Assembly (NCBI GenBank): GCA_037444485.1
Contig: JBBIMI010000001.1
Span: 1-64,000, forward strand
DNA: 64,000 bases
Source: Candidatus Micrarchaeota archaeon
Lineage (GTDB): Archaea; Micrarchaeota; Micrarchaeia; Norongarragalinales; Norongarragalinaceae
Reading direction: 5' to 3'
This document shows, in pieces, positions 2,585-52,514 of this stretch (positions are counted from its first letter, which is position 1; the number at the start of each line of letters is the position of its first letter). The translations under genes were made by a program, and so were the position numbers. The notes under the pieces are model-generated. The model had not been told where the DNA came from, did not search any database, and saw only the letters and a list, made by a program, of their open reading frames with translations.

Positions 2585-3427
2585 TCAACTCACAAGAAAC
2601 TTGGGCGTCTTCGCCCGCAAGAACAACAACAAAGCCGCATCCAAAAAAGGAAACAACAACACGAACGCCGCGAAAACATCGCCGGCGCCGAACGAGAAAG
2701 CAAGGAAACTAGAGCCAACAATAACGTAAGCCCCAAACAAGGCAGGCACAATACACGAAACAGCGATGAAAAGCAATCCAAAAAAAGATGCTTTAGCGTT
2801 GAATTCGCGCGCCCGCGTCTTCTGCAACAACAACACTTCGTCAGCCAACTTCCGCAACCCCTCACCCTTCAAACCATGCTCGTAAACGAACGCGAGTTGC
2901 GCGCACGCGCGCTTAAACAACAATGAATCAACACGCTCGCGAGCAGCGCGGAACGCTTCACCGAAACCCGCGCCGCGCGCGACGCTTGCGAGCACGCGCG
3001 AAAACTCGTTACTCAACTCGCTGTAACCATTCGAAAGCTCGCGCAACACGCGCTCAAAACTCGCGCCAGAATTCAATTCAATGCTCGCCGCCCGCAACGC
3101 CACGCCCAGGTCGCGTTCCACCAACTCGCCACGCGCCCGCGCGGCATACCAAGGCGCGCGCAACAACGCGAGAAACGCTAACGCGAACGCGGCGAAAAAC
3201 GCGGCGAACGCCAACTGAAAGCCAAACGAAAACAAAGCGAGAATAAACGCAAGCAATCCGACGGCAAGCGCGCCAACCAACGATAGAGTGCTCCAACGCG
3301 CCGGCGTAGCGAGGGCATTCGACTGCAGCAAGCTTTTCCCTAAACGCGATGACGTTGACTGGGAAAACAAACGCGTTTCAGGAAGCGTGTTCGCGAGAGC
3401 GTCAAGGACCTTAAACATTTTTTTCAA
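2585..3427 (-). CDS. Type II secretion system F / TadB/C-like membrane protein
   Basis: ERDL..ALR....L.SG.SFE...Y.ELS.EF pattern with TM helices; paralog of the downstream gene. Confidence 0.8.
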   Translation of the reverse strand: MKKMFKVLDALANTLPETRLFSQSTSSRLGKSLLQSNALATPARWSTLSLVGALAVGLLAFILALFSFGFQLAFAAFFAAFALAFLALLRAPWYAARARGELVERDLGVALRAASIELNSGASFERVLRELSNGYSELSNEFSRVLASVARGAGFGEAFRAARERVDSLLFKRACAQLAFVYEHGLKGEGLRKLADEVLLLQKTRAREFNAKASFFGLLFIAVSCIVPALFGAYVIVGSSFLAFSFGAGDVFAAFVLLFPFLDAALLLFLRAKTPKFLVS

Positions 3428-4824
3428 CTGTTTTCAACTGTGCGCGAAAACAAGTAATCGTTAACCTTATTCGTGAATTCAAGCAACCCCAACTGCTTTT
3501 CACTCAAGCTACTCAAAAACCTGCTTCTCGCAGCTAGTTCGCTCTCGAATTCCTTGAAATTACGGAAACCGTAATTAAACGCGATTTTGTTGAAGAACCG
3601 CAGCGAAGAGAAAGCGCGAGTAGCGCGCAAACAATTTCCGGTTTGGTCGAATTCAAACAACTTTACTGGTTCGCCGTCAACAACTTCCGCGACTTCAACA
3701 ACGCGCCTTACTTCGCGTTGTTTCTTCGCTTTCTTGTCGTAGACTGTTGCGCGGCGGAGAATCACGAGCAAGTCTATCGCGTTCAAGTCTTCTGGGCGCG
3801 CGCCGAACGCGGTTAAACGCGCGAGTGCTTCCCGAGCCGAGCCGGCGTGGAAGGTCGCGTAACTCCCGCGCGCTTGGCCGGCGAGGAGCGAGTCGAATAA
3901 CGCTTGCGCTTCGCTTGCGTCGCGCACTTCGCCGATTATTACGCGGTCTGGACGCATGCGCAGCGTGTCTTTCACTATAGCGCGCAGTGGAATGTCGAGT
4001 TCCTCGTTCGCGACGATTCGCACTTGATGCTCGTGAGGAATGCGGATTTCAGGTGTTTCTTCAGTTACTACCACGCGGTCTGAAAGCGGAATGAATGAGA
4101 AAAGCGCGTTGAGGAAAGTTGTTTTTCCGCTTCCAGTGTTGCCAGCGATTAGAATTGAGGAGTCCGCGTATGCGGCCAACCACAAGAATGCCGCGAGATT
4201 CGCGTCAAGCGTTTGAAAACTAATCAAGTCAAGGATTGTGAAAGGTTTTTCGCGGAATTTGCGGAGCGTAAGCTCGACACCGTTCAGCGTGAGGGGTGAG
4301 ATGCACGCGTGTAAACGCGCTCCGTTCGGAAGCACGGCGTTCAATCTCGGGTTTTGGTAAGTTATCCTGCGTCCAAGCGCGCGAGCCATCTTGTTTATTG
4401 TGTTAACAGCGAAGGCTTCGCTAGTCAAAACACAGTTCGTCTTAAGCCAACCGCGCGTCTTGTGGAAAACGTAGATTGGCTTGTTCACGCCGACAACACT
4501 GATTTCTTCAAGCTCGTCGTCAGCCAAAAGATAGTCGAAGACTCCAAAACCGTAAACGTTTTTGAACGCTGCATCGAGAATCGCTGCGCCAGCGTTTTTC
4601 TCTACTTCCACGCCGTATTCTTCGCTCAACCGCGCTAGAATAGCCTTCAAACGCGTTTGAACTCGGGCCGCGTCACCGCTTGGTTCAGGCGACTCACTCA
4701 AATATTCTTTCAACAAAAGCTCTAAGAGTTTTTCGTGCTCGCGTGAAAAACTCGTTCCGCGTTCTGGAAGCGAGTAACCAGCTGCGTCGGCTTTCGTAAT
4801 CATCCAACCTAAGGCTTTAGACAA
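3424..4824 (-). CDS. Type II/IV secretion / pilus assembly ATPase (TadA/VirB11/FlaI family)
   Basis: Walker A GNTGSGKTT, LRMRPDRVIIGEVR, TFHA motifs. Confidence 0.92.
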   Translation of the reverse strand: MSKALGWMITKADAAGYSLPERGTSFSREHEKLLELLLKEYLSESPEPSGDAARVQTRLKAILARLSEEYGVEVEKNAGAAILDAAFKNVYGFGVFDYLLADDELEEISVVGVNKPIYVFHKTRGWLKTNCVLTSEAFAVNTINKMARALGRRITYQNPRLNAVLPNGARLHACISPLTLNGVELTLRKFREKPFTILDLISFQTLDANLAAFLWLAAYADSSILIAGNTGSGKTTFLNALFSFIPLSDRVVVTEETPEIRIPHEHQVRIVANEELDIPLRAIVKDTLRMRPDRVIIGEVRDASEAQALFDSLLAGQARGSYATFHAGSAREALARLTAFGARPEDLNAIDLLVILRRATVYDKKAKKQREVRRVVEVAEVVDGEPVKLFEFDQTGNCLRATRAFSSLRFFNKIAFNYGFRNFKEFESELAARSRFLSSLSEKQLGLLEFTNKVNDYLFSRTVENS

Positions 4825-10488: not shown

Positions 10489-12141
10489 TCACTTTTCTAT
10501 TGTTTTACGCATGTTTTCTAGACGCTGTTTGTATTCCTCGTCTTGCTGTGACTCTCTGTAAAACCTGCGTCTTCCAGCAAGCACGACTACGAGCAACGCT
10601 ATGAGGATAATTAACGCAATCAGCCAAGTGTTTTGACTCAACGCCAGCGTAACGAAGCCCGTCAAGCCGGTCGCGCGCGGTTCTACTGAAAATTCTTTCA
10701 CCGCAACCACGCGGCCTTTGCTGCGCACTTCGATTACCGCGTTCTTCACGCCCTCGTCGCTTCCCCGCGTTATTGAAACGAGAATAGTTTTCTTCGAATT
10801 CGCTGGAACGATGGTTGCTGGAGGCGCAGAGTAACTCCAGTCCTTCGGCAGGCCGGAAATCGAAATCGTTGCATCCTCGAGAGGCGAGTCGAACGGGTTT
10901 TCAACTTCAACGAAAAGCTTGACTACTTCGTTTTGCTCGCTTTTTTCAACTAAAACGTTTTCCTCGCCAACGCAAGCGCTGGACTGCACTGCAACAGTTT
11001 TTTCGAATGTCTTGCGTTCCGGCGAATTCAAGCTCTCGGCGCGCACGACTAGCGCGCGAGCGCCTACGCCTGCTTTTGAACCGTCTACTGTAACAGTAAA
11101 TAATGCTTCTTTTCCTGCTGGAATGCTTAGTTCAGTTGGCGCGAGGGAAGCGAATTCGCTTGCCTCTAGAATGAATGAGTCCTCGCGGGAGCCAACATTC
11201 TTCAACCTTGCAGTAAACGCGGTTGAACTGCAAGCGCTAGTCTTTATTGACTGTGGTAGGGCGAGCTCGGCGTCGAACTTGTCTTCAACGTCAACGTAAA
11301 CGTCTTTTTCTGCTAGAACAACGAAATTACGGATTGCTTGAACAGTAATCCAGTACCTGCCAGCGCCAGCATTTCTCGAAGGCTGCACATCAACATAGAA
11401 TTCCTGGATTCCGCCACGCGATAGAGAAACATAGTTGTTGCTTAAAACCGCGTTTACAGCGTCCTTGTCGCCGACGAGCTTCAAATCGAAGGTGCCTGCA
11501 GCGCCGCGGTTTACTAAAGCTATTTTAAAGCGCGCAAAACCGCCTGCCGAGATTTTCTTACCTTCAGTCGCGCCCAGAAAATCGACGTCGTACTCTGTGG
11601 GGTCAAAATAAGAAGCGAGAGTCAAGTAACTCTTTACTTGCGTGCCCTCGCCGGTTTCACGAGGTGGTTCATAGTAAGGAGTCTTCGCAGTGCCGTTAAT
11701 GTAGTAACCCTTGCTTGCGCAGGGAGTGACGAAAACCCGCAAGTTTTTCTGGCGAAACTCGTTCACTGTATTGTCACGCGGCGACGTGATTTGCGCGCGA
11801 ATCGATGCGTCTTCAGCGCCCCGCATGTTGTCAGGCGCGCGGAAATGCAAGTACGTTCCTTTCGCGCCGTGCGCTGGCGCTACAAGAAACTCGTCTTCAA
11901 AAAAGCCGTTCAAACCGATTCGGTTAAAGAATTGCGCGGAAAACGCGACTAGTCGTTCTTCGCTCGCGTCATTCACAATCCAAACGAACACTTTCCCCTC
12001 GCGACACGATATTGAAGCAGTGTCAGCGCTTACCTTCAACTCGACGCCTGCTGCGAGGGAAGCGACCAATAAAGCCGTTCCCAAGGCTATGAAGCCGATT
12101 CTTAATTCCTTCAACCCGTGCAGCGAAGCCAACAAAGTCAT
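10489..12141 (-). CDS. Ig-like multi-domain cell-surface protein with C-terminal TM anchor
   Basis: Signal peptide; repeated N.G...D.F.L beta-sandwich motifs; C-terminal TGLTGF + TM + basic tail. Confidence 0.75.
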   Translation of the reverse strand: MTLLASLHGLKELRIGFIALGTALLVASLAAGVELKVSADTASISCREGKVFVWIVNDASEERLVAFSAQFFNRIGLNGFFEDEFLVAPAHGAKGTYLHFRAPDNMRGAEDASIRAQITSPRDNTVNEFRQKNLRVFVTPCASKGYYINGTAKTPYYEPPRETGEGTQVKSYLTLASYFDPTEYDVDFLGATEGKKISAGGFARFKIALVNRGAAGTFDLKLVGDKDAVNAVLSNNYVSLSRGGIQEFYVDVQPSRNAGAGRYWITVQAIRNFVVLAEKDVYVDVEDKFDAELALPQSIKTSACSSTAFTARLKNVGSREDSFILEASEFASLAPTELSIPAGKEALFTVTVDGSKAGVGARALVVRAESLNSPERKTFEKTVAVQSSACVGEENVLVEKSEQNEVVKLFVEVENPFDSPLEDATISISGLPKDWSYSAPPATIVPANSKKTILVSITRGSDEGVKNAVIEVRSKGRVVAVKEFSVEPRATGLTGFVTLALSQNTWLIALIILIALLVVVLAGRRRFYRESQQDEEYKQRLENMRKTIEK

Positions 12142-19395: not shown

Positions 19396-22155
19396 ATGGG
19401 TTTAGTTTCAAAAAACTTTGCGGTTTTCTTCGCAATCGCTTTCGCAGCGTTCGCCGTAAGCGTTTCAGCGAATTCGCTTGTCTTCGTTTCGCCGAGTTGG
19501 CAGCAAGGCTGCCAATGCGACCCGCAGACTTTCGTAGCGCGTTTAACTAACGACAACGCGGAAAGCGAGGTTTACGACCTCTTTATTTCAGGACTAGACC
19601 CGGATTACTTCAGCTATTTCGCGACTCCCCGCGTTGAAGTGCAACCGCACTCGAGCAACGAAGTAATGGCTTTCATTACTCCGCGTTGTTACGCGGACGG
19701 GGGAAACTATTCGTTTTCAATCAAAGCAGTCGGCAGTAGGGGAAGCTCGCACTCGCTTTCCGGAATCACGCAAGTAGTGCAATGCCACTCGCTTCGATTA
19801 AGTGTAACGCCAGAGCAAAGCGTTTGCGGGGGCGACGAAGCGACTTTCTTAATCACGCTCAAAAACAACGGAATCTTTCAAGAAACAGGCAACATTACTA
19901 CCGACTTGCCTGCAAGCATGCACTCGCTCGCTGACAAGAGCTTCAACTTGAAGCCAGGCGAAGAAAAACAATTCCGTTTGTACGTCCAGCCGCCTACGCG
20001 CATGCCCCCAACGCGTTTAGCTTTTAAAGTAGAAGCCACTTCACATAACGCTTTCCGCAGGGAATACGCTGCGCTCGTAGTCCGCGATTGCTCCGGCTTG
20101 CAAATCGTAGTTCCGCCAGTAATCTACTTGCAACCCGGCGAACAAGCAGACACCCCAGTTTACTTGATTAACACTGGCGCGAGCGATGGTTTCAACTTAC
20201 GAAAGGAATGCCCGCAGTGGACGAGCTTAAGCGACGCAAGCGTCACCCTCGCAGCCGGAGAAAACAAGACTACCACGCTGCGTTCAACCCCGCCAGCTGA
20301 CGCGGTAAACAAAGAATTTGCGTGCGCTATTCGCGCGGATTCAAAAAAATTCGGCAAGCAATTCAGCGCTAACACGAAGCTAGTAGTCCAACAACTTTAC
20401 TCTGCCAGCTTAAGCGCTAATGTTTCCGGCGACGAGGTGCGCGCCTGCAAAGGCGAAGGCGCGACGGTTCGCTTCACGCTCTCGAACACCGGCAAGCAAG
20501 CTGCCTTCACGCTTTCAGCAAGCGGCGTGCCAGGCGCTTTAAGCATGAACAGCGTTACAGTAAACGCGAACTCAACGCAATCATTCGATTATAACATAGA
20601 TAGCGCTGCAGCCGCGATCGGGGCTTACACTCTAACCGTGCAAGCAAGCAACTCGTATTACTCGACGAGCAAATCCATTCGCGTTACAATAGAAGATTGC
20701 TTTAACAGCGGGTTGACCGCGAACACGAATTCGCTTACGCTTTGCCCAACGCAGTCAAGCACCATCACGCTCACGATTTCAAACAAGGGAACCCGCGCCG
20801 ACGAATTCACTCTCGCCGTCAGCGGCCAAGACGGCCTGCAAACGCGGTTAAGCAAAACAACGTTTTCGCTCGCCGGAAACGCGAGCGACCAAGCAACGCT
20901 TGAAATCACCGCGCCGTTAAACGCGCAAGCAAACACTTACGCAGTCACGCTCACGCTTGAAGACGGTTCAACTGCTACTCTGCCGATAAGCGTGCGCGTT
21001 CCAACGCAAAGCGAATGCCGCAGTATCGAGTTGATTCCGCAAACATGGTACTTGAATTCCACGTTATGCCGCGGAGGCGTTATTGAAATCGAGGTTAAAA
21101 ACAAGGGATTGTTTACTGAAACCCTCACGCTTTCCGCAGAAGGCGTTTCATGGGCTTACATCACGCCAAACAAGCTAACAATAAAACCGCAATCAAGCGC
21201 TAAAACGTACTTGTACGTTGCAGCCCCATTCTCAACACCGCCCGGAATATACTACATTACACTCAAAGCATTCAACGACTTCATTAACGAAAGCATTCGC
21301 TTAACCGCAGAAATCAAGGAATTACCGCCTGAAGAGTACTACAAAAGCAAGGGCGTAAAACCAACAGACTACGCGATTACGTTAACCCCACCCCCGCAAA
21401 TCAAGACCGAGACGAACGCAATCAAGCAAGTAAACTTTAAAATCAAGAACACGGGCGTCGGAGTAATTCACGACGCGCGAATCTTCGTGCAAAGCGACTT
21501 GCTCACAATCGCCAACCAAACACTCGAACCAATCGAAATCAAGCCCAGCGAAGAAAAAACAATAACGCTCGCGCTTCAAGCGAAAAAACAAGGAGAGCAC
21601 GAAGCGCTAGTGCGCGCGGTTGCTCGCGAGACTTTCGCTGAAGCGAAAACGCGTTTGATTGCAGGCGTTCCCACGCTTTCAATACGAGAAACAGGCAAGC
21701 GCATGGTTAACGCGAGCGAGAACAGTAAAGTGTTTCAAGTTACTTTCAACGTCACGAACCTCGACGGAGAAACCATAGTAACGCCGCGCGGTGCGAACGC
21801 GGTCTTCACTCCAGAAACACTAACGCTCAAGCAAGGCGAAAGCGCGGTTTTCACTGCTAGCGTCAACACGCAGATTGAAGTCAACCAAACGTTCGGCTTC
21901 GAGTTCAAAACAAACCGCGGCGTTTACTACGCTGAAACTCGAATTGAAAGCACTGGAATCCCGTCAACAGGCTTCGCTGGCGCGAGCCTAACAGGCTTGT
22001 TCGCAGGCGCGAACGCTACGATAATCGGCTTCATAATCGCTCTCGCAGCAGGCCTAATAGTGGTTTACTTGCTGCTCAAGCACGACGCAATCAAAATAAA
22101 GCGTCAACCCGGCGCGCCGAAAACGAAAAGCAAAAAACCACCAATTGAAGAATAA
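19396..22155 (+). CDS. Large Ig-like repeat surface protein with C-terminal TM anchor
   Basis: Signal peptide from ATG 19396; repeated C...(L/I).N.G...F.L modules ending in xxC; LTGLF + TM + Lys tail. Confidence 0.8.
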   Translation: MGLVSKNFAVFFAIAFAAFAVSVSANSLVFVSPSWQQGCQCDPQTFVARLTNDNAESEVYDLFISGLDPDYFSYFATPRVEVQPHSSNEVMAFITPRCYADGGNYSFSIKAVGSRGSSHSLSGITQVVQCHSLRLSVTPEQSVCGGDEATFLITLKNNGIFQETGNITTDLPASMHSLADKSFNLKPGEEKQFRLYVQPPTRMPPTRLAFKVEATSHNAFRREYAALVVRDCSGLQIVVPPVIYLQPGEQADTPVYLINTGASDGFNLRKECPQWTSLSDASVTLAAGENKTTTLRSTPPADAVNKEFACAIRADSKKFGKQFSANTKLVVQQLYSASLSANVSGDEVRACKGEGATVRFTLSNTGKQAAFTLSASGVPGALSMNSVTVNANSTQSFDYNIDSAAAAIGAYTLTVQASNSYYSTSKSIRVTIEDCFNSGLTANTNSLTLCPTQSSTITLTISNKGTRADEFTLAVSGQDGLQTRLSKTTFSLAGNASDQATLEITAPLNAQANTYAVTLTLEDGSTATLPISVRVPTQSECRSIELIPQTWYLNSTLCRGGVIEIEVKNKGLFTETLTLSAEGVSWAYITPNKLTIKPQSSAKTYLYVAAPFSTPPGIYYITLKAFNDFINESIRLTAEIKELPPEEYYKSKGVKPTDYAITLTPPPQIKTETNAIKQVNFKIKNTGVGVIHDARIFVQSDLLTIANQTLEPIEIKPSEEKTITLALQAKKQGEHEALVRAVARETFAEAKTRLIAGVPTLSIRETGKRMVNASENSKVFQVTFNVTNLDGETIVTPRGANAVFTPETLTLKQGESAVFTASVNTQIEVNQTFGFEFKTNRGVYYAETRIESTGIPSTGFAGASLTGLFAGANATIIGFIIALAAGLIVVYLLLKHDAIKIKRQPGAPKTKSKKPPIEE

Positions 22156-40111: not shown

Positions 40112-40582
40112 TCAACCCACTACCCTCGGTTTTCTGGTGATTACTGTTTCATTCAACGCGTTCGGGTGCATCGCAAAATAATCAGCTGCTTCCTTGTTTA
40201 ACGCGTCGTTCGGATTCGGTTTTTCGAGTAATTGCTTTAACGCTTTTACTAGGCTCACTAGCGTCGTGCCTTCACTCCACTCGTTTAAAAGCTGAATGCA
40301 TACTTTTCCGTCTTCGCTGCGAATGTTCGGGTGAAAGATTGGAGTCAACCAAGTGACTTCGATTCCGCCAGCGTAAGGGTATTCGCGCTTCAAATCGATT
40401 TGAATAGAGTGCGACTCGCGTTTTTGTAGCGAGTCCCCGTTCTTAAACAAGCTGACGCCGCGCAAGCTTATTACGTAACTCGTCTTCGACTCGTTAACCT
40501 CAAAATTTTCTTTGCTGGCAACCATTTGTTGAAACTCGCTTTCAAGCCTGCGTCTCCAAATCGCTTCAGGAAGCATTGGCAT
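40112..40582 (-). CDS. Ubiquitin-conjugating enzyme E2 (UBC fold)
   Basis: RRLESE, EYPY, TPIFHPNI...GKVCIQLL.EWS, L..LLEKPNPNDALNKEAA. Confidence 0.92.
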   Translation of the reverse strand: MPMLPEAIWRRRLESEFQQMVASKENFEVNESKTSYVISLRGVSLFKNGDSLQKRESHSIQIDLKREYPYAGGIEVTWLTPIFHPNIRSEDGKVCIQLLNEWSEGTTLVSLVKALKQLLEKPNPNDALNKEAADYFAMHPNALNETVITRKPRVVG

Positions 40583-40620
40583 TACAGACTACCTCGAAAA
40601 AACAGTTGAATGATTTGACT

Positions 40621-40884
40621 TCAACCGCCAGTCGGATCAGGCATCAACAGCAAACGACTCCCTTCCTTTAAACCAGCGTCTGCCACCGTAATTTCAGGAT
40701 TCAAAACCTTATCATCAACAGTAGATAAAACAAAACGGTCTTTTAATTGAAGGTTTTCAGCGAGCACTTCCAAAACAGAGCTGATTGTGAAGCCCGGCTC
40801 TACCGCAACAACTATTTCCTTCCCGCTCGTGGTATGCGTTACTGTAATGTTGAATTCTTTCGAAGGCGAACTTTCCGATTCCAT
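40621..40884 (-). CDS. Ubiquitin-like protein ending in Gly-Gly
   Basis: 87 aa beta-grasp pattern; ...KVLNPEITVADAGLKEGSRLLLMPDPTGG*. Confidence 0.88.
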   Translation of the reverse strand: MESESSPSKEFNITVTHTTSGKEIVVAVEPGFTISSVLEVLAENLQLKDRFVLSTVDDKVLNPEITVADAGLKEGSRLLLMPDPTGG

Positions 40885-40984
40885 GCAAAAACCACCTCAA
40901 TTAAAGCACGTTAGTTAAAGCAAAAGATATTTGAACACAATATAATAATAAGTGTTGCGGTGAACAAAAGAGGTTTTTAAACCC

Positions 40985-41461
40985 GTGAATGAAGAAAAGA
41001 AAAAACCAAAGACAATAAGTGAGAAAGACGCGGTTCAAGAAGCTGGCGTTAAAGAAACCGTTGAAGAAGAAAGCAAGGAAACCGCTGAATCTAAAAACGA
41101 AAACACTAAAGAGGCGGAAAAACAACTAGTGGAAACAAGTGAAACGAGTAAAACAAGCGAAAAAGAAGAGAAGAAGCCTAGAGTGAAAGTCGTTGTAGAA
41201 CCAGTTTTCGGCGAACGCGGAACAAAACCCGTCATAACCGTCACTAGCGAGAAACCGCGTTTAGTGCGTGAAGTAGAAGAACAAGCTGCTCGAGACGTTC
41301 TGCCAACACAATCTCCGCCGGGCACGCCGTTAGAAGCGCGGAAACCCTTGACGCGTGAAGAAGTAGTTGAGAAAGCGAAACAGGTTTGGGAAGAGAACAA
41401 GCGGAAAAAAAGTGAAGGTAAGTTCTTCAACCGCTTAAAACGCGCGTTGAAACTCGGTTAA
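40985..41461 (+). CDS. Hypothetical acidic, low-complexity protein in the ubiquitin cluster
   Basis: Glu/Lys-rich, with a C-terminal amphipathic FFNRLKRALKLG. Confidence 0.65.
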   Translation: MNEEKKKPKTISEKDAVQEAGVKETVEEESKETAESKNENTKEAEKQLVETSETSKTSEKEEKKPRVKVVVEPVFGERGTKPVITVTSEKPRLVREVEEQAARDVLPTQSPPGTPLEARKPLTREEVVEKAKQVWEENKRKKSEGKFFNRLKRALKLG

Positions 41462-41480
41462 AGTTGTTTAAAGCGGTGAA

Positions 41481-41942
41481 TTGATGTTCGAGGTTTACGT
41501 TCACGAGAAAGTCTTAAAGAAAGCTGAAAAACACTGCGCACGCGAAGCAGAGAGAGGACTAGAAGCGATGGGTTTGCTTTTGGGAAACGCGTTCACGCAC
41601 AAGGGCCGTGAGTACGTTGTAGTCGAAGACTATTCCACTGGCGAGAATGAAGCAACAAGCGTTTCGGTGCGCTTTACGAAGAAAGCGTTTTCTAAACTCG
41701 CGAAAGACTTCGAGGAAGGTGGACGCATAATCGTTGGTTGGAGCCACGCACACCCGTCTTACGGTTGCTTCCTCTCAGCAACAGACTTGAAGACTCAAAA
41801 CAATTACTTTAACGAAGATTTCCACGTCGCGCTCGTCATAGACCCAACGCACAAAACGTCGAACGGTTTTGAAAAAAAGTTTTTCAAACTCTGCGCTGAA
41901 GGCTACCGCGAAGCTTCCTACGCGGTAATCAAAGAAAAGTGA
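41481..41942 (+). CDS. JAB/MPN+ (Rpn11-like) metallo-isopeptidase
   Basis: EAMGLLLG ... VGWSHAHPSYGCFLSATD ... ALVIDP. Confidence 0.92.
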   Translation: MMFEVYVHEKVLKKAEKHCAREAERGLEAMGLLLGNAFTHKGREYVVVEDYSTGENEATSVSVRFTKKAFSKLAKDFEEGGRIIVGWSHAHPSYGCFLSATDLKTQNNYFNEDFHVALVIDPTHKTSNGFEKKFFKLCAEGYREASYAVIKEK

Positions 41943-42952
41943 AAAAAATGCTTGGACAAAGCGAGACGCAGGAAAAAAACGCGAACGCACCCGCTGCTGC
42001 TGGCGCGTCAGCCGCAACTCCAGCGGCGAAGACGACAGTAAAGACAATGGTGGAGACGCGCAGAAAGAAAGCAGTCGTAAAGAAAACCGCGATTAAGATA
42101 ACTAAGTTTGATAAAGCGCTCGCGCAACAAATAATTTTAGGCGAAACTAACCTAAAGAAAATCCAGGAAAAAATGCGTGTCGACGAAAAACAATTTTTTG
42201 AACGCGTGAAGAAACTAGGCGACGCTGGTTACATTGTTATTAATGAATCAAGGGAAGCCTGGTTTGGAATAAAAGGCTTTGAAGCCTTCGCCAACCAATT
42301 CAAGAAACTTGCGTCTACGCCGACGCCGAAATCCCGCGCGCGACTGGAAGAAACGCCCTCCGCGGCGCAAGCACCGCAAGCGCAGCAGACGCCAGCGCAG
42401 CAAGCGCAGCAGACGCAACAAACGCAGTCTCCCTTCACACAGCCCACGGTTCCGCCTGCGTTAGACCCTAGGCAAACTTTTCTTGCTGAAGCGACTGCAA
42501 AAGAAAAAGATGAGGTCAACGTCGACTTGAGCGAATTGCTTAAAAAAGGTGCTCCTAAACCAAGCGACTCGATTTTCGTAAAACGCCAAAACGAAAAATC
42601 TTCTAGAGTGCTCTCTCGCGCGTTTGAAACAATTAAAACCAAGGATCCTGCAAAAGTCTCGACTGCAGGAGAATTAATTGAAGCGATTAAGAAAAGTAAG
42701 CCGAGCAGAGAGGCGTTGATGGTTGACGGCGGCGAGGCTTGCGAATTGTGTAAAGCAAATTTTAAACTCGCTGTTGCAGGAGACGGCAACCCAAAGTACG
42801 GCCACTGCTTCTGCGGAGCAGCCTACCATAAAGACTGTTACGAGTCCCTCGCAGGCAACAGCGGAAAATGCGTGCGCTGCGGCAAGAAACTCAAACTCGA
42901 GTTAAGCAAACAAAGCGAAGAAGCGGTTAAAGAAATAAAGGAATTATTCTGA
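41939..42952 (+). CDS. wHTH + RING-like zinc-finger protein (candidate E3 ligase)
   Basis: C-terminal CELC-x14-CFCGAAYHKDC-x9-CVRC; N-terminal wHTH-like segment; overlaps the JAB stop codon. Confidence 0.72.
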   Translation: MKKMLGQSETQEKNANAPAAAGASAATPAAKTTVKTMVETRRKKAVVKKTAIKITKFDKALAQQIILGETNLKKIQEKMRVDEKQFFERVKKLGDAGYIVINESREAWFGIKGFEAFANQFKKLASTPTPKSRARLEETPSAAQAPQAQQTPAQQAQQTQQTQSPFTQPTVPPALDPRQTFLAEATAKEKDEVNVDLSELLKKGAPKPSDSIFVKRQNEKSSRVLSRAFETIKTKDPAKVSTAGELIEAIKKSKPSREALMVDGGEACELCKANFKLAVAGDGNPKYGHCFCGAAYHKDCYESLAGNSGKCVRCGKKLKLELSKQSEEAVKEIKELF

Positions 42953-42990
42953 GAAAGCGTGAAGTACCCTAAAATACTGGGTTCCGACTT

Positions 42991-43752
42991 TCAATGCACT
43001 GGGCAACTAACGCGTTTCGGAACTTCAAACAACCGTGCAGTCGACTTCAAACCGTCCAGAAAGAGGAACTTGCCTGCAAGCGTTTTCTCGCCGAAAGAAT
43101 CACTGTGCACGAGCTTCAAAAACTCGTTCACTTGAATTCCTGCAACAACGCTCGTCGTCGTCGGAAGCGCCGGATTCTTTGGGTTAATCCAATCAACTAA
43201 CTCTCCCACACAATTGTACTTTTGCCACAAAAGCTTGTAATCGCTTTTACTCAACCCGCACTCGAGACACGAAGAAGGAGCGCGCACTACTTGCACTTTC
43301 CCGAAAAACCCGGTTGTTCCCCCGTCAATCAAAGGAATCTTGCTGTAACACTGGGCGTTCAAATGCAGTCTCGCACCCAAGTTGTCGAGACAACCGAAAG
43401 CGTAATCGAAATTTTCGTAAAAATCTTCAGGAAGTTCTTCAATCTTCTCAGTGAAAACGCGTACCTCGGCAGTCGGATTGATTCTTGCAGCTTCGCGTTT
43501 TACCACATCAACCTTCGGCAAGCCCACGTCTCCCTCGCTAAAGAAAACACAGCGATTCAAGTTCGCTTTCACAATCGAATCGAAGTCTACAAGCGAAATG
43601 TTTTTTACGCCGAGTTGAAGCAAGAGCTTGACGACTTCATTTCCAAGCGCGCCAGCGCCGACTACAAGCACGCGCGCCTCCGCGACTTCAGTCTGCCTCC
43701 AACCCTTCACGCGCTTTTGCCTATCGTGAACGTCCTCATCAATCGCAACCAT
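42991..43752 (-). CDS. Ubiquitin-activating E1 / ThiF-MoeB family adenylyltransferase
   Basis: HDRQ, VLVVGAGALGNEV, VDFD.I...NLNR, CLDN..AR, IDGGT.GF.G.V, CLEC...C...CPVH. Confidence 0.92.
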   Translation of the reverse strand: MVAIDEDVHDRQKRVKGWRQTEVAEARVLVVGAGALGNEVVKLLLQLGVKNISLVDFDSIVKANLNRCVFFSEGDVGLPKVDVVKREAARINPTAEVRVFTEKIEELPEDFYENFDYAFGCLDNLGARLHLNAQCYSKIPLIDGGTTGFFGKVQVVRAPSSCLECGLSKSDYKLLWQKYNCVGELVDWINPKNPALPTTTSVVAGIQVNEFLKLVHSDSFGEKTLAGKFLFLDGLKSTARLFEVPKRVSCPVH

Positions 43753-43803
43753 AATGCTATTTTTAACAATCGTTCTTTAAAACAATATTAGGGAAACAAA
43801 AAA

Positions 43804-44595
43804 ATGCCTTTGATTCTCTACACTACGGAAGACATTGCGGGAACGAACGCCGCGCGCATTCTGAAAGAAAATTATGGCTTTAAACAAACTGAAGACTTGC
43901 AGATTAAAGACAAGACCTTCAAAACCTGGTATGACCATGAAATCCAACTGATCGAACTAAATACGCGCCTGGCGTTCGACAGCAACTGGCTCAATGATTA
44001 CTTCGCGAGCGACTTGCTCGTGTTTGCTTCCCGCCACTGCAGTGAAACAAGTAAACCCTGCCTTACCACGCACACTACTGGCGATTGGGCCAGCGGCGAA
44101 TTGAGTGCAACCAGCGCGTTCGCCGTAAAAACCGCTTTCTTGTTCTTCAAACAAAACCCGCTTGAAGGATTTAGCGTTTCACTGGAAGCAACCCACCACC
44201 AGCCTTGGAATTTAACCACCCCCTCACTCTTCATTGAAGTTGGAAGCAGCGAAAACGAGTGGCGCGACGAAAGAGCTTGCGCGCTCTTAGCAGAATGCGT
44301 TATTGAAACAGCGAAAAACTATTCGAATGCGAGCGGAAAAAGCGCGTTAGGGTTCGGCGCCGGCCACTATGCGCCAACGTTCAACGAACTCGAAGCAAGC
44401 GATTACAGTTTTTCATTCATTGCTCCAAAACACTCACTCGACTTCGTAACAACTAATTTAATCAAGCAAGCAGTTGCAAAAACGCGTGAAGGCGTTGAAG
44501 TAGCAGCAATCGATTGGAAGGGCTGCAGCGGCGAGCAACGCAAGAAAGTGATTCAAGCTTGCGAAGAAATCAGCTTGCCTTGGGAGAAGGTTTAA
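43804..44595 (+). CDS. dtdA: Archaeal D-aminoacyl-tRNA deacylase (DTD2/GEK1 family)
   Basis: VFASRH.S, LTTH.TG, EATHH.P, FIEVGSSE.EW, GFGAGHYAP. Confidence 0.88.
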   Translation: MPLILYTTEDIAGTNAARILKENYGFKQTEDLQIKDKTFKTWYDHEIQLIELNTRLAFDSNWLNDYFASDLLVFASRHCSETSKPCLTTHTTGDWASGELSATSAFAVKTAFLFFKQNPLEGFSVSLEATHHQPWNLTTPSLFIEVGSSENEWRDERACALLAECVIETAKNYSNASGKSALGFGAGHYAPTFNELEASDYSFSFIAPKHSLDFVTTNLIKQAVAKTREGVEVAAIDWKGCSGEQRKKVIQACEEISLPWEKV

Positions 44596-50674: not shown

Positions 50675-51757
50675 ATGGCGAACAATTTCGTAAAAATAAT
50701 TGCGAGCGCGCCGAACAAAATTCATGTTGCTGGCGAGCACAGCGTCGTTTACGGTGGAATAGCTTTAATCGCTCCAGTTGAAGTGGATGAAAAACGCAAC
50801 GTTGTGGAATTAATCGCTGAACCCGGCCAGCCTCAGCTAGAGTTTATAGGAAAAGGTTACGGAAAAACCGGGAGGGCAGTACTGCATGCTGACGGGACGA
50901 TGAACGGGGACAACGAATGGAAGCCGATGCTTGAAGTAGCGCAACACGTTTTAGAAGACTGCGAAAAAAACTTGAAAGACTTGAATACTAGTATAACCGC
51001 TGAACGGTTTTTCAGTGGTGCGCCGAAAGGAACAGGCAATTCAGCTTCAATTCCAGCAGCATTCGCTTCCGCGTTATACGCGTTTTTGGGAAAAAAACCA
51101 AGCAAGCAAGAACTTTACGATGCGGCTTTCATTGCGGACAACGCGTGGCATGGCGGAAAGTCAAGCGGTGGAGACGTGCAAGCAGTAATTTCGAACCATC
51201 CACAAAAATTCTGGAGAGAATTCACTCGAAAAGGCGTAAAACCACGTTACCAAGACTTTAGTGGAACGCTTCCGAAAAACACTGTTTTAGTGTTAATAGA
51301 TTCTTTCAGGGGTGTTGGAGAGAAATCCACTACGGCGCTCCAAATCGAGAAATTCGCTGCAGCTAACGGAATAACTAGAAAACCTTTCGAATTAACTGAA
51401 CAGGAAAGAAAAAAAATATGTAAGCCTTACGATGAAGTCATCGAAAAAATAGAAAGCGAAATGCGTTTTGACGGAAACCCTGAAAAACTCGGGGCATACT
51501 TCAACGAAAACCACGAGTTACTGAAAAAATCAAATGTTTCAAGTCCAGACATTGAAGAAGCTATTTCAGTAAGCAAGCGAAACGGCGCTCTAGGAGCGAA
51601 ACTAATCGGCGCCGGAGGCGTTGGGGGGGCAGTCATAGCCCTCTGCATGCGAGAAAAAACGCGTTTAATAACGAATGCGCTTGCGGAAAAAAAATTTAAT
51701 AGTTGGACGGTCAAATTCGCTGAAAAAGGAGCTTGCGTGGATTCGATGCAAAAATGA
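50675..51757 (+). CDS. mvk: Mevalonate kinase
   Basis: SAPNKIHVAGEHSVVYG, KGTGNSAS, HGGKSSGGD, GAKLIGAGGVGG. Confidence 0.85.
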   Translation: MANNFVKIIASAPNKIHVAGEHSVVYGGIALIAPVEVDEKRNVVELIAEPGQPQLEFIGKGYGKTGRAVLHADGTMNGDNEWKPMLEVAQHVLEDCEKNLKDLNTSITAERFFSGAPKGTGNSASIPAAFASALYAFLGKKPSKQELYDAAFIADNAWHGGKSSGGDVQAVISNHPQKFWREFTRKGVKPRYQDFSGTLPKNTVLVLIDSFRGVGEKSTTALQIEKFAAANGITRKPFELTEQERKKICKPYDEVIEKIESEMRFDGNPEKLGAYFNENHELLKKSNVSSPDIEEAISVSKRNGALGAKLIGAGGVGGAVIALCMREKTRLITNALAEKKFNSWTVKFAEKGACVDSMQK

Positions 51758-51805
51758 TATTTTGGATGGAGTCAAGTGATGGGCTCGTATTAAAATAATA
51801 GTAAT

Positions 51806-52514
51806 ATGAAAATGAAAACTTTTGTTATAGGCGTTGACGAAGCGGGCAGATTGCAATAACTCAAGTTATTGCAAGCCAAAAGGACCCGTCATCGGCCCAC
51901 TAGTAGTCTGCGCTTTCGCCGCGCCAGAGTCTTCGCTTTCTTCACTCAAGAGCGCGGGTGTCAAGGATTCTAAGTTGCTGACGCCTGAAAAGCGCGAGGC
52001 GCTCGCGCGCGAGTTGCGCGCGTTTCCGCACGCCCTCGCCGTCGTCACCGCGCGGGAAATTACTGAGGAAATGGCGCGCAAGGTTTCATTGAATGAAGTG
52101 GAAGCGCGCTTCATGGCTAGCGTGATTCAAGCAGTCGTAGAGAAAGTTGGTTTCGAGAACGTGGCGCGAATCATGGTTGATTCTCCTGACCCGACTACAG
52201 TAAAGTTTAAAGCGCGGTTGCGCAAGTATTACGACGCTGATTCGAAAGTTCATTGCGAACACAAGGCGGACTTGCGTTATACTGAAGTAGGCGCTGCTTC
52301 AATTCTAGCGAAAGTCTTGCGCGACGCTGAAGTCGCTAAAATCAAGGAGTTGTTCGGTGAAGACTTTGGAACAGGGTATAGTCACGATGCGGCGACGATC
52401 GCATTCCTGAAAAAACACTTGCGTGACCCGCGGCTCACGGAATTCGTGCGGTGGAAGTGGAGCACCGCAAAAAAATTGAGGGTCACGCAGTTAGAGTTAA
52501 ACAAATTCCTATAA
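51806..52514 (+). CDS. rnhB: Ribonuclease HII, interrupted by a 31-nt insertion (exons 51806..51849 and 51881..52514)
   Basis: Exon 1 MKMKTFVIGVDEAGR joins exon 2 GPVIGPLVVC...GVKDSKLLT...HKAD...AASILAKV.RD...GTGY. Confidence 0.9.
51850..51880 (+). other. Putative BHB-type intron in rnhB
   Basis: A-TTGCAATAAC-TCAA-GTTATTGCAA-GCCAAA; perfect 10-bp hairpin; removal restores frame and the DEAGRGP motif. Confidence 0.75.

Follow-up and report, generated by a model that had tools for sequence, protein, structure and literature searches.

A candidate BHB-type intron within the catalytic motif of the RNase HII gene of a Micrarchaeota archaeon

The RNase HII gene (rnhB) of a Candidatus Micrarchaeota archaeon is split between two reading frames inside its catalytic motif, and the question raised by this locus is whether the gene is broken or whether the nucleotides between the frames are removed from its transcript. 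The locus lies in a window of 64,000 nt (positions 1–64,000 of contig JBBIMI010000001.1, assembly GCA_037444485.1), the window being the whole stretch of DNA that was analysed. The start codon is the ATG at 51806, and the upstream frame reads MKMKTFVIGVDEAGRLQ to a stop codon; MKMKTFVIGVDEAGR, opened by this ATG, is followed by LQ and then by the stop. A long open frame that reads GPVIGPLVVC and onwards runs from 51882, in a different frame from exon 1, and matches the Pfam family RNase_HII over profile positions 9–198 of 199. The insert between the two frames is 31 nt long (a flanking A makes 51851–51881 equivalent to the interval given in Table 1). The break after R and the resumption of GPVIGPLVVC 31 nt further on in another frame are found where the first-pass annotation of this DNA had placed them.

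The explanation favoured here, with a probability of about 0.88, is that these 31 nt (51850–51880) are an archaeal bulge-helix-bulge (BHB) intron in the rnhB pre-mRNA; we infer its splicing from comparison of sequences. The first-pass annotation had proposed the same, and the proposal is supported by inserts at the same site in related genomes, covariation of the helices, insert lengths that are free modulo 3, conserved exons and the presence of both a suitable endonuclease and RtcB.

The interrupted rnhB frame and its predicted fold

The interruption falls within the catalytic motif at a distance of 44 nt from the start codon, and shifts the frame such that a stop follows two codons downstream; unspliced rnhB RNA would give only a 17-residue peptide. 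The upstream neighbour is a GHMP-kinase gene of the mevalonate kinase type, and the downstream neighbour, on the opposite strand, encodes ribosomal protein S3Ae. Automated annotation would call such a gene truncated, and the shifted frame with its early stop is also what would be seen if a hairpin-forming insertion had inactivated rnhB and left the remainder as a young pseudogene. However, a simple pseudogene accompanied by an intact second copy, which had been named as an outcome that would count against splicing, is not what the genome holds: it is 95 % complete and contains a single RNase HII match, the exon 2 of which is open.

The genome is metagenome-assembled, in 58 contigs (961,727 bases, 47.5 % G+C), which would be in favour of an assembly or sequencing artefact. 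Positions 51500–52300 are present at a depth of 26 and with 0 differences in a contig assembly made independently from the probable source run, although raw data may be shared between the two. The 31 nt are thus retained in that assembly, and inserts at the same site occur in nine other assemblies, so that an artefact is scarcely credible. Among four DNA runs compared, one near-identical contig spans the site; in a 90–95 % relative (X2), 74 other letters replace 124 across the rnhB start.

Table 1. Coordinates of the predicted features of the interrupted rnhB and rtcB genes (window positions unless a contig is given)
Feature	Position	Strand	Remarks
rnhB exon 1	51806–51849	+	ATG to 2nd base of Arg codon; encodes MKMKTFVIGVDEAG plus AG of Arg; ends DEAGR
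Putative BHB-type intron, 31 nt	51850–51880	+	Removal would give GGC AGA GGA CCC; same-site inserts in 9 other genomes
rnhB exon 2	51881–52514	+	Last base of Arg codon, GPVIGP... to stop; PF01351, E 7e-38
Outer exon–exon helix, 5′ strand TGACG	51835–51839	+	Pairs with 51887–51891; loose
Central helix H, 5′ strand GGGC, in exon 1	51844–51847	+	Pairs with 51875–51878
5′ bulge AGA	51848–51850	+	Predicted cut 51849/51850
Helix h′, 10-bp hairpin with TCAA loop	51851–51874	+	9/9 aligned pairs with compensatory changes, 10 genomes
Central helix H, 3′ strand GCCA, in intron	51875–51878	+	Pairs with 51844–51847
3′ bulge AAA	51879–51881	+	Predicted cut 51880/51881; sits in 5×9 internal loop, not a closed bulge
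Outer exon–exon helix, 3′ strand CGTCA	51887–51891	+	Pairs with 51835–51839
rtcB insert 1, 51 nt	C30:2998–3048	+	After MPDGHEG; helix AAGG/CCTT, bulges ATA and GAA, 13-bp hairpin; cut would give EGYGFPIGG
rtcB insert 2, 35 nt	C30	+	After GGVGY; helix GGCT/GGCT with G·U pairs, bulges ACA and CGG; cut would give GGVGYDINCG

Most of the insert is taken up by a perfect 10 bp hairpin (arms 51851–51860 and 51865–51874, loop TCAA), the sequence of which is single-copy in the 0.96-Mb genome as well as in the window, where shuffles give an expectation of 0. The perfect hairpin with its TCAA loop had been described beforehand, as had the GGGC/GCCA helix, the AGA and AAA bulges and the TGACG/CGTCA outer helix, and all of these elements were recovered at the positions then given. 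The central helix of this genome consists of three Watson–Crick pairs with G·A as the outer pair. The outer helix h is set off from the 3′ bulge by the 5×9 internal loop, whereas in most relatives it closes the 3′ bulge and leaves 3–4 nt unpaired. The modelled motif of this genome is of a relaxed kind with an HBh′-like 3′ side, in keeping with an endonuclease type for which cleavage of relaxed motifs has been reported. Folding of the whole segment has z = −2.44, a stability matched by 6 of 200 shuffles. At −23.4 kcal/mol the BHB register is 0.3 worse here than the minimum-energy fold (−23.7 kcal/mol), the more stable alternative being an exon–exon pairing that disrupts the central helix. Of the ten intron-bearing orthologues, six have the BHB register as their minimum-energy fold, and in the other four it lies no more than 0.9 kcal/mol from that fold; the central helix and two 3-nt bulges on opposite strands are found in all ten, with an additional unpaired A next to the hairpin in one (G014).

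A perfect palindrome of this kind could also be a DNA-level element, MITE- or REP-like, with RNase HII produced as an N-terminally truncated protein from an internal start. An open frame of 226 codons does begin at TTG 51834, and the palindromic elements of Rickettsia are in-frame hairpin inserts. However, the sequence is unique in 961,727 bases (the next best match covers 20 nt at E 0.9), with which a repeat element does not fit, and in the related genomes the sequences vary while the structure is kept. Additionally, a protein that starts past the insert would be without the Asp and Glu of DEAGR, which we take to be catalytic residues of RNase HII. A palindromic element is on these grounds very improbable. 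A self-splicing group I or group II intron, or another described RNA family, was rejected: a search of positions 51700–52000 against Rfam, with E up to 1, was negative, and the insert has 31 nt as against hundreds.

Same-site inserts and covariation in related genomes

Relatives were surveyed in two stages. In the first, 41 related genomes were searched with exon 2 and the upstream DNA was inspected at 30 loci; an insert at the same site, after the second base of the Arg codon of DEAGR, was present in 5 other genomes. In the second, 68 genomes of the order were searched with an uninterrupted homologue as query and rnhB was detected in 64, with late-starting alignments in six further genomes. 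Four of the six carry the same-site insert (G065, G044, G063 and G043), one has an uninterrupted rnhB (G049) and in one the gene is cut by a contig end (G050); another genome (G019), with an alignment that was without the N-terminal part, was left out of the insert assessment. In all, the DEAGR|G motif is interrupted between the second and third bases of the Arg codon in 10 of the 68 genomes, from 5 families. Uninterrupted congeners occur in four genera, in which the interrupted gene is found in 3/5 (g10), 1/3 (g5), 1/5 (g6) and 1/2 (g11) genomes. The search of related genomes for rnhB with and without the insert, which the first-pass annotation had put forward as a check, thus returned both forms.

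A degenerate pattern comprising the exon 1 edge, a gap of 22–52 nt, and the intron 3′ end with the exon 2 edge was scanned against 401 genomes of the class. It matched the same ten genomes within the order (10/68) and none of the 333 class genomes outside it, the negatives including the unpublished G297 and G136; the reversed pattern, used as a control, had no match among the 401. The pattern was written from these same ten cases, and divergent forms may therefore escape it. Genomes of the class with two rnhB matches each (families f14 and f18) were considered as carriers of split genes and rejected: in the five cases checked, both matches lie in one open frame and are two pieces of a single alignment.

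The inserts measure, in ascending order, 29, 31, 32, 33, 33, 35, 37, 37, 39 and 43 nt. Their lengths modulo 3, listed in a different order, are 1, 1, 1, 0, 0, 2, 0, 2, 1 and 2, and those in-frame inserts that were inspected contain stop codons. Occurrence of all three classes, together with stops in the in-frame members, means that the inserts are not translated. The surrounding gene is preserved throughout: the exon 1 motif ..G(V/C)DEAGR is kept in 10/10 intron-bearing orthologues, and rnhB gives a single match per genome in all ten, its exon 2 being open over about 210 codons. Decay of the gene is hard to reconcile with an insert at the identical base in ten genomes of five families, with the retention of DEAGR and an open exon 2 in what is the only rnhB of each genome, and with helices that covary, since a decaying insert would not keep them. 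A dead or dying gene is therefore highly unlikely.

Ten segments were aligned with MAFFT, with gaps in the loop only, and the structure tested comprised 17 pairs (4 bp in the outer helix, 4 bp in the central helix and 9 bp in the hairpin). Paired cells amount to 91.8 %, a value reached in none of 500 shuffles (71.1 %); sliding the partners by 1–3 columns gives 31–48 %. Eleven of the 17 pairs are changed on both sides, where the shuffle mean is 6.5, and the covariation score is 0.584 versus 0.187 for the control. Intron sequences diverge between genomes, and the structure is retained. The central helix (columns 19–22 with 62–65; 95 % paired, compensatory changes in 2/4 pairs) carries particular weight, since its 5′ strand lies in coding sequence. 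At this helix the third base of the Ala codon and the last base of the intron-side strand form U–A in four genomes, C–G in two and G–C in two, and are unpaired in two; the third base of the Gly codon and the first base of the intron-side strand form C–G in seven, A–U in two and U·G in one. The outer helix (columns 11–14 with 74–77) is 97.5 % paired and almost invariant, so that its pairing is uninformative either way.

These alignments also bear on translational bypassing, in which the insert would stay in the mRNA and the ribosome would skip the hairpin by hopping, in the manner of phage T4 gene 60. The gap of gene 60 has a stop codon near the break and a stable hairpin right behind it, and in rnhB, too, a stop closely follows the break and a stable hairpin lies behind it. 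However, only 1 of the 10 orthologues has identical take-off and landing codons, and what is conserved is that exon 1 pairs with the 3′ end of the insert and leaves 3-nt bulges, which the endonuclease needs and hopping does not. Bypassing merits as little credence as decay of the gene.

With regard to the history of the BHB intron, no clear signal of recent transfer was found in the comparison of the intron-bearing genomes: intron identity roughly follows exon identity, and the best cross-family pair (G016/G034) gives 0.73 versus 0.68.

Splicing enzymes and interrupted rtcB genes

Cleavage after the second nucleotide of each bulge, as had been predicted, would remove 51850–51880 and regenerate AGRGP; in all ten orthologues, this genome included, the same cut restores the frame and gives DEAGRG(P/C). 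The accessible text of PMC4090602 does not state where in the bulge the cut falls, and the rule was therefore applied as a control to the genome's own tRNA-Glu, tRNA-His and tRNA-Tyr introns; it yielded tRNAs that were accepted by aragorn and had a normal anticodon loop. A one-sided shift by 1 base did not give such tRNAs, whereas a joint 1-base shift of both cuts also gave the tRNA in most tries. With intron search, aragorn predicts 23 of the 32 tRNA genes to be intron-bearing, several of the introns being at unusual positions; the three cases above were those checked.

The splicing endonuclease is encoded in one 388-aa frame with N-terminal and catalytic domains, of which residues 13–388 match PDB 4FZ2/9W2K (E 7e-128). 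These entries are, according to the available part of PMC12397907, the apo and RNA-bound forms of the epsilon2 enzyme of Candidatus Micrarchaeum acidiphilum ARMAN-2. Judged by this match the genome encodes a splicing endonuclease that is of the epsilon2, ARMAN-2 type. The relaxed specificity that had been attributed to such an enzyme is borne out by the accessible text of PMC3239211, in which the ARMAN-2 epsilon2 type is reported to cleave canonical as well as non-canonical (relaxed) BHB motifs. The RtcB RNA ligase is also encoded in the genome.

In the proposed pathway, the GGGC at the end of exon 1 would pair with the GCCA at the 3′ end of the intron and form the central helix, with the rest of the intron held as the 10-bp hairpin and the splice sites in the 3-nt bulges AGA and AAA on opposite strands. 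The epsilon2-type endonuclease would cleave past the second nucleotide of each bulge, RtcB would ligate the exons, and the spliced mRNA would then be translated into full RNase HII with its catalytic DEAGRGP motif. Cleavage and ligation probably take place in the cell; that RNase HII expression might be coupled to splicing activity is speculation.

The ligase gene appears to be interrupted in the same manner. The rtcB of this genome (contig C30, approximately 2853–4321, + strand, outside the window) lies in three pieces separated by two BHB-type inserts (Table 1). The GGVGY|DINCG site of rtcB is interrupted in 7 of the 68 genomes of the order (G000, G044, G022, G014, G043, G045 and G063), with inserts of differing sequence. 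The rnhB intron is also present in five of the seven (hypergeometric P = 4.4e-4, for related genomes that are not independent), and some genomes seem prone to such introns. The first rtcB intron is one copy of an A/T-rich repeat dispersed through the genome, where it has many matches (E down to 5e-10). Copies are found on C12 (e.g. 19532–19571 and 11557–11596), C19, C6, C29 and C5, as well as in the introns of tRNA-Glu (C28:6704–6821) and tRNA-Leu, which hints that mRNA- and tRNA-gene introns share a source.

Further mRNA introns were sought in a genome-wide screen that combined BHB geometry with open-frame and codon-usage filters. Only the two rtcB introns were convincing. Canonical cuts passed the filters no more often than cuts shifted by 1 base (e.g. 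31 loci versus 24–33), so that the screen has little power; the rnhB intron is absent among the loci listed, and thus real cases with short exons are missed. A Pfam search of the 74 open frames of the window found no other family split across neighbouring frames.

Two other features of the window may be recorded. Two T2SSF frames at 1712–2584 and 2588–3433 (− strand) have a single in-frame TGA between them; no BHB-like fold was seen by eye at the junction, and the frames look like two adjacent genes. A ubiquitin-like modifier set is located at 40115–44592, with frames for an E2-like UQ_con protein, a JAB/MPN protease and an E1-like ThiF protein.

Possible mobility, significance and relation to known systems

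The co-occurrence of rnhB and rtcB introns, a nuclease gene beside rnhB in G034 and the repeat nature of the first rtcB intron raise the possibility that these mini-introns are mobile, selfish elements that insert themselves by homing at codons of essential genes where conservation is highest (rnhB at DEAGR|G, rtcB at GGVGY|DINCG) and accumulate in particular genomes. The idea is tentative and on balance unlikely. The nuclease gene in question is a 375-aa frame with LAGLIDADG_3 (E 1.5e-8) and HTH domains (L009:2100–3224, − strand), which ends where the interrupted rnhB of that genome starts. In the nine remaining genomes with the intron, the region upstream of rnhB has no LAGLIDADG gene that Pfam detects: the frames preceding rnhB in G065, G063 and G043 have no such match, none lies beside rnhB in the window (where the mevalonate kinase gene is upstream) or in G016, G021 and G044, and the neighbour of about 400 aa in G004 and G014 is found beside intron-less genes too. 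Nuclease-assisted homing was rejected, the LAGLIDADG_3 and HTH gene being directly upstream of rnhB in G034 only. Elsewhere in the present genome there is a weak LAGLIDADG-like match (C14:11293–11724, E 3.5e-6).

Judging from the portions of the literature at hand, tRNA-type introns in archaeal protein genes have so far rested on one case, cbf5 in Crenarchaeota. The first-pass annotation had likewise described such introns as known mainly from crenarchaeal cbf5, which agrees with the accessible parts of reviews up to 2025, where it is the only case cited; papers of 2018 and 2025 name, in the sections available, only cbf5 as a pre-mRNA case, and a crenarchaeal one. A literature search that lacked most subscription journals found no paper on a BHB intron in rnhB or rtcB. 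The two genes would therefore be the second and third examples, in another superphylum and with another type of endonuclease, and the phenomenon would be wider than cbf5. Annotation pipelines will report such essential DPANN genes as truncated or absent, and inferences on metabolism and completeness are biased as a result. Since the introns occur patchily within genera, they offer a natural system for the study of intron gain and loss. An interrupted ligase gene would also make the splicing machinery dependent on itself: if this reading is true, rtcB mRNA needs RtcB for its maturation and the splicing apparatus would be heritable only as protein.

In the cbf5 pre-mRNA of Crenarchaeota, as described in the available parts of the reports, a BHB lies at the exon–intron junctions and the intron is removed by the tRNA-splicing endonuclease and a ligase, splicing having been demonstrated experimentally (Watanabe 2002; Yoshinari 2006; Yokobori 2009, PMC2738675). 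The intron occurs patchily among related species, which implies that it has been gained and lost. The putative rnhB intron resembles it in the BHB at the junctions and in its patchy distribution, with splicing predicted from sequence in the case of rnhB, and differs from it in the gene, in its position within the catalytic motif, in its DPANN, Micrarchaeota-type host and in the epsilon2 endonuclease, as opposed to the heterotetramer that acts on cbf5.

The non-canonical tRNA introns of ARMAN-2 are the closer parallel with respect to the enzyme, which is of the same type and, as far as the accessible sections indicate, acts on strict or relaxed BHB substrates (Fujishima 2011, PMC3239211; Miyata 2025, PMC12397907). 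Neither 'mRNA' nor 'protein-coding' occurs in the available text of PMC3239211, and that of PMC12397907 cites cbf5 in its reference list only. Many tRNA genes with predicted introns are likewise found in the present genome, whereas the proposed substrate at rnhB is an mRNA.

A third comparison concerns the removal of short mRNA introns by proteins alone. In HAC1/XBP1 the endonuclease Ire1 cuts at two stem-loops, the exons are joined by a tRNA ligase (RtcB in animals) and the reaction serves as a regulated stress switch. The rnhB intron would share with HAC1/XBP1 the protein-only cutting and ligation of a short mRNA intron, with a change of reading frame, yet in place of Ire1 and two stem-loops it would employ the tRNA-splicing endonuclease and a BHB.
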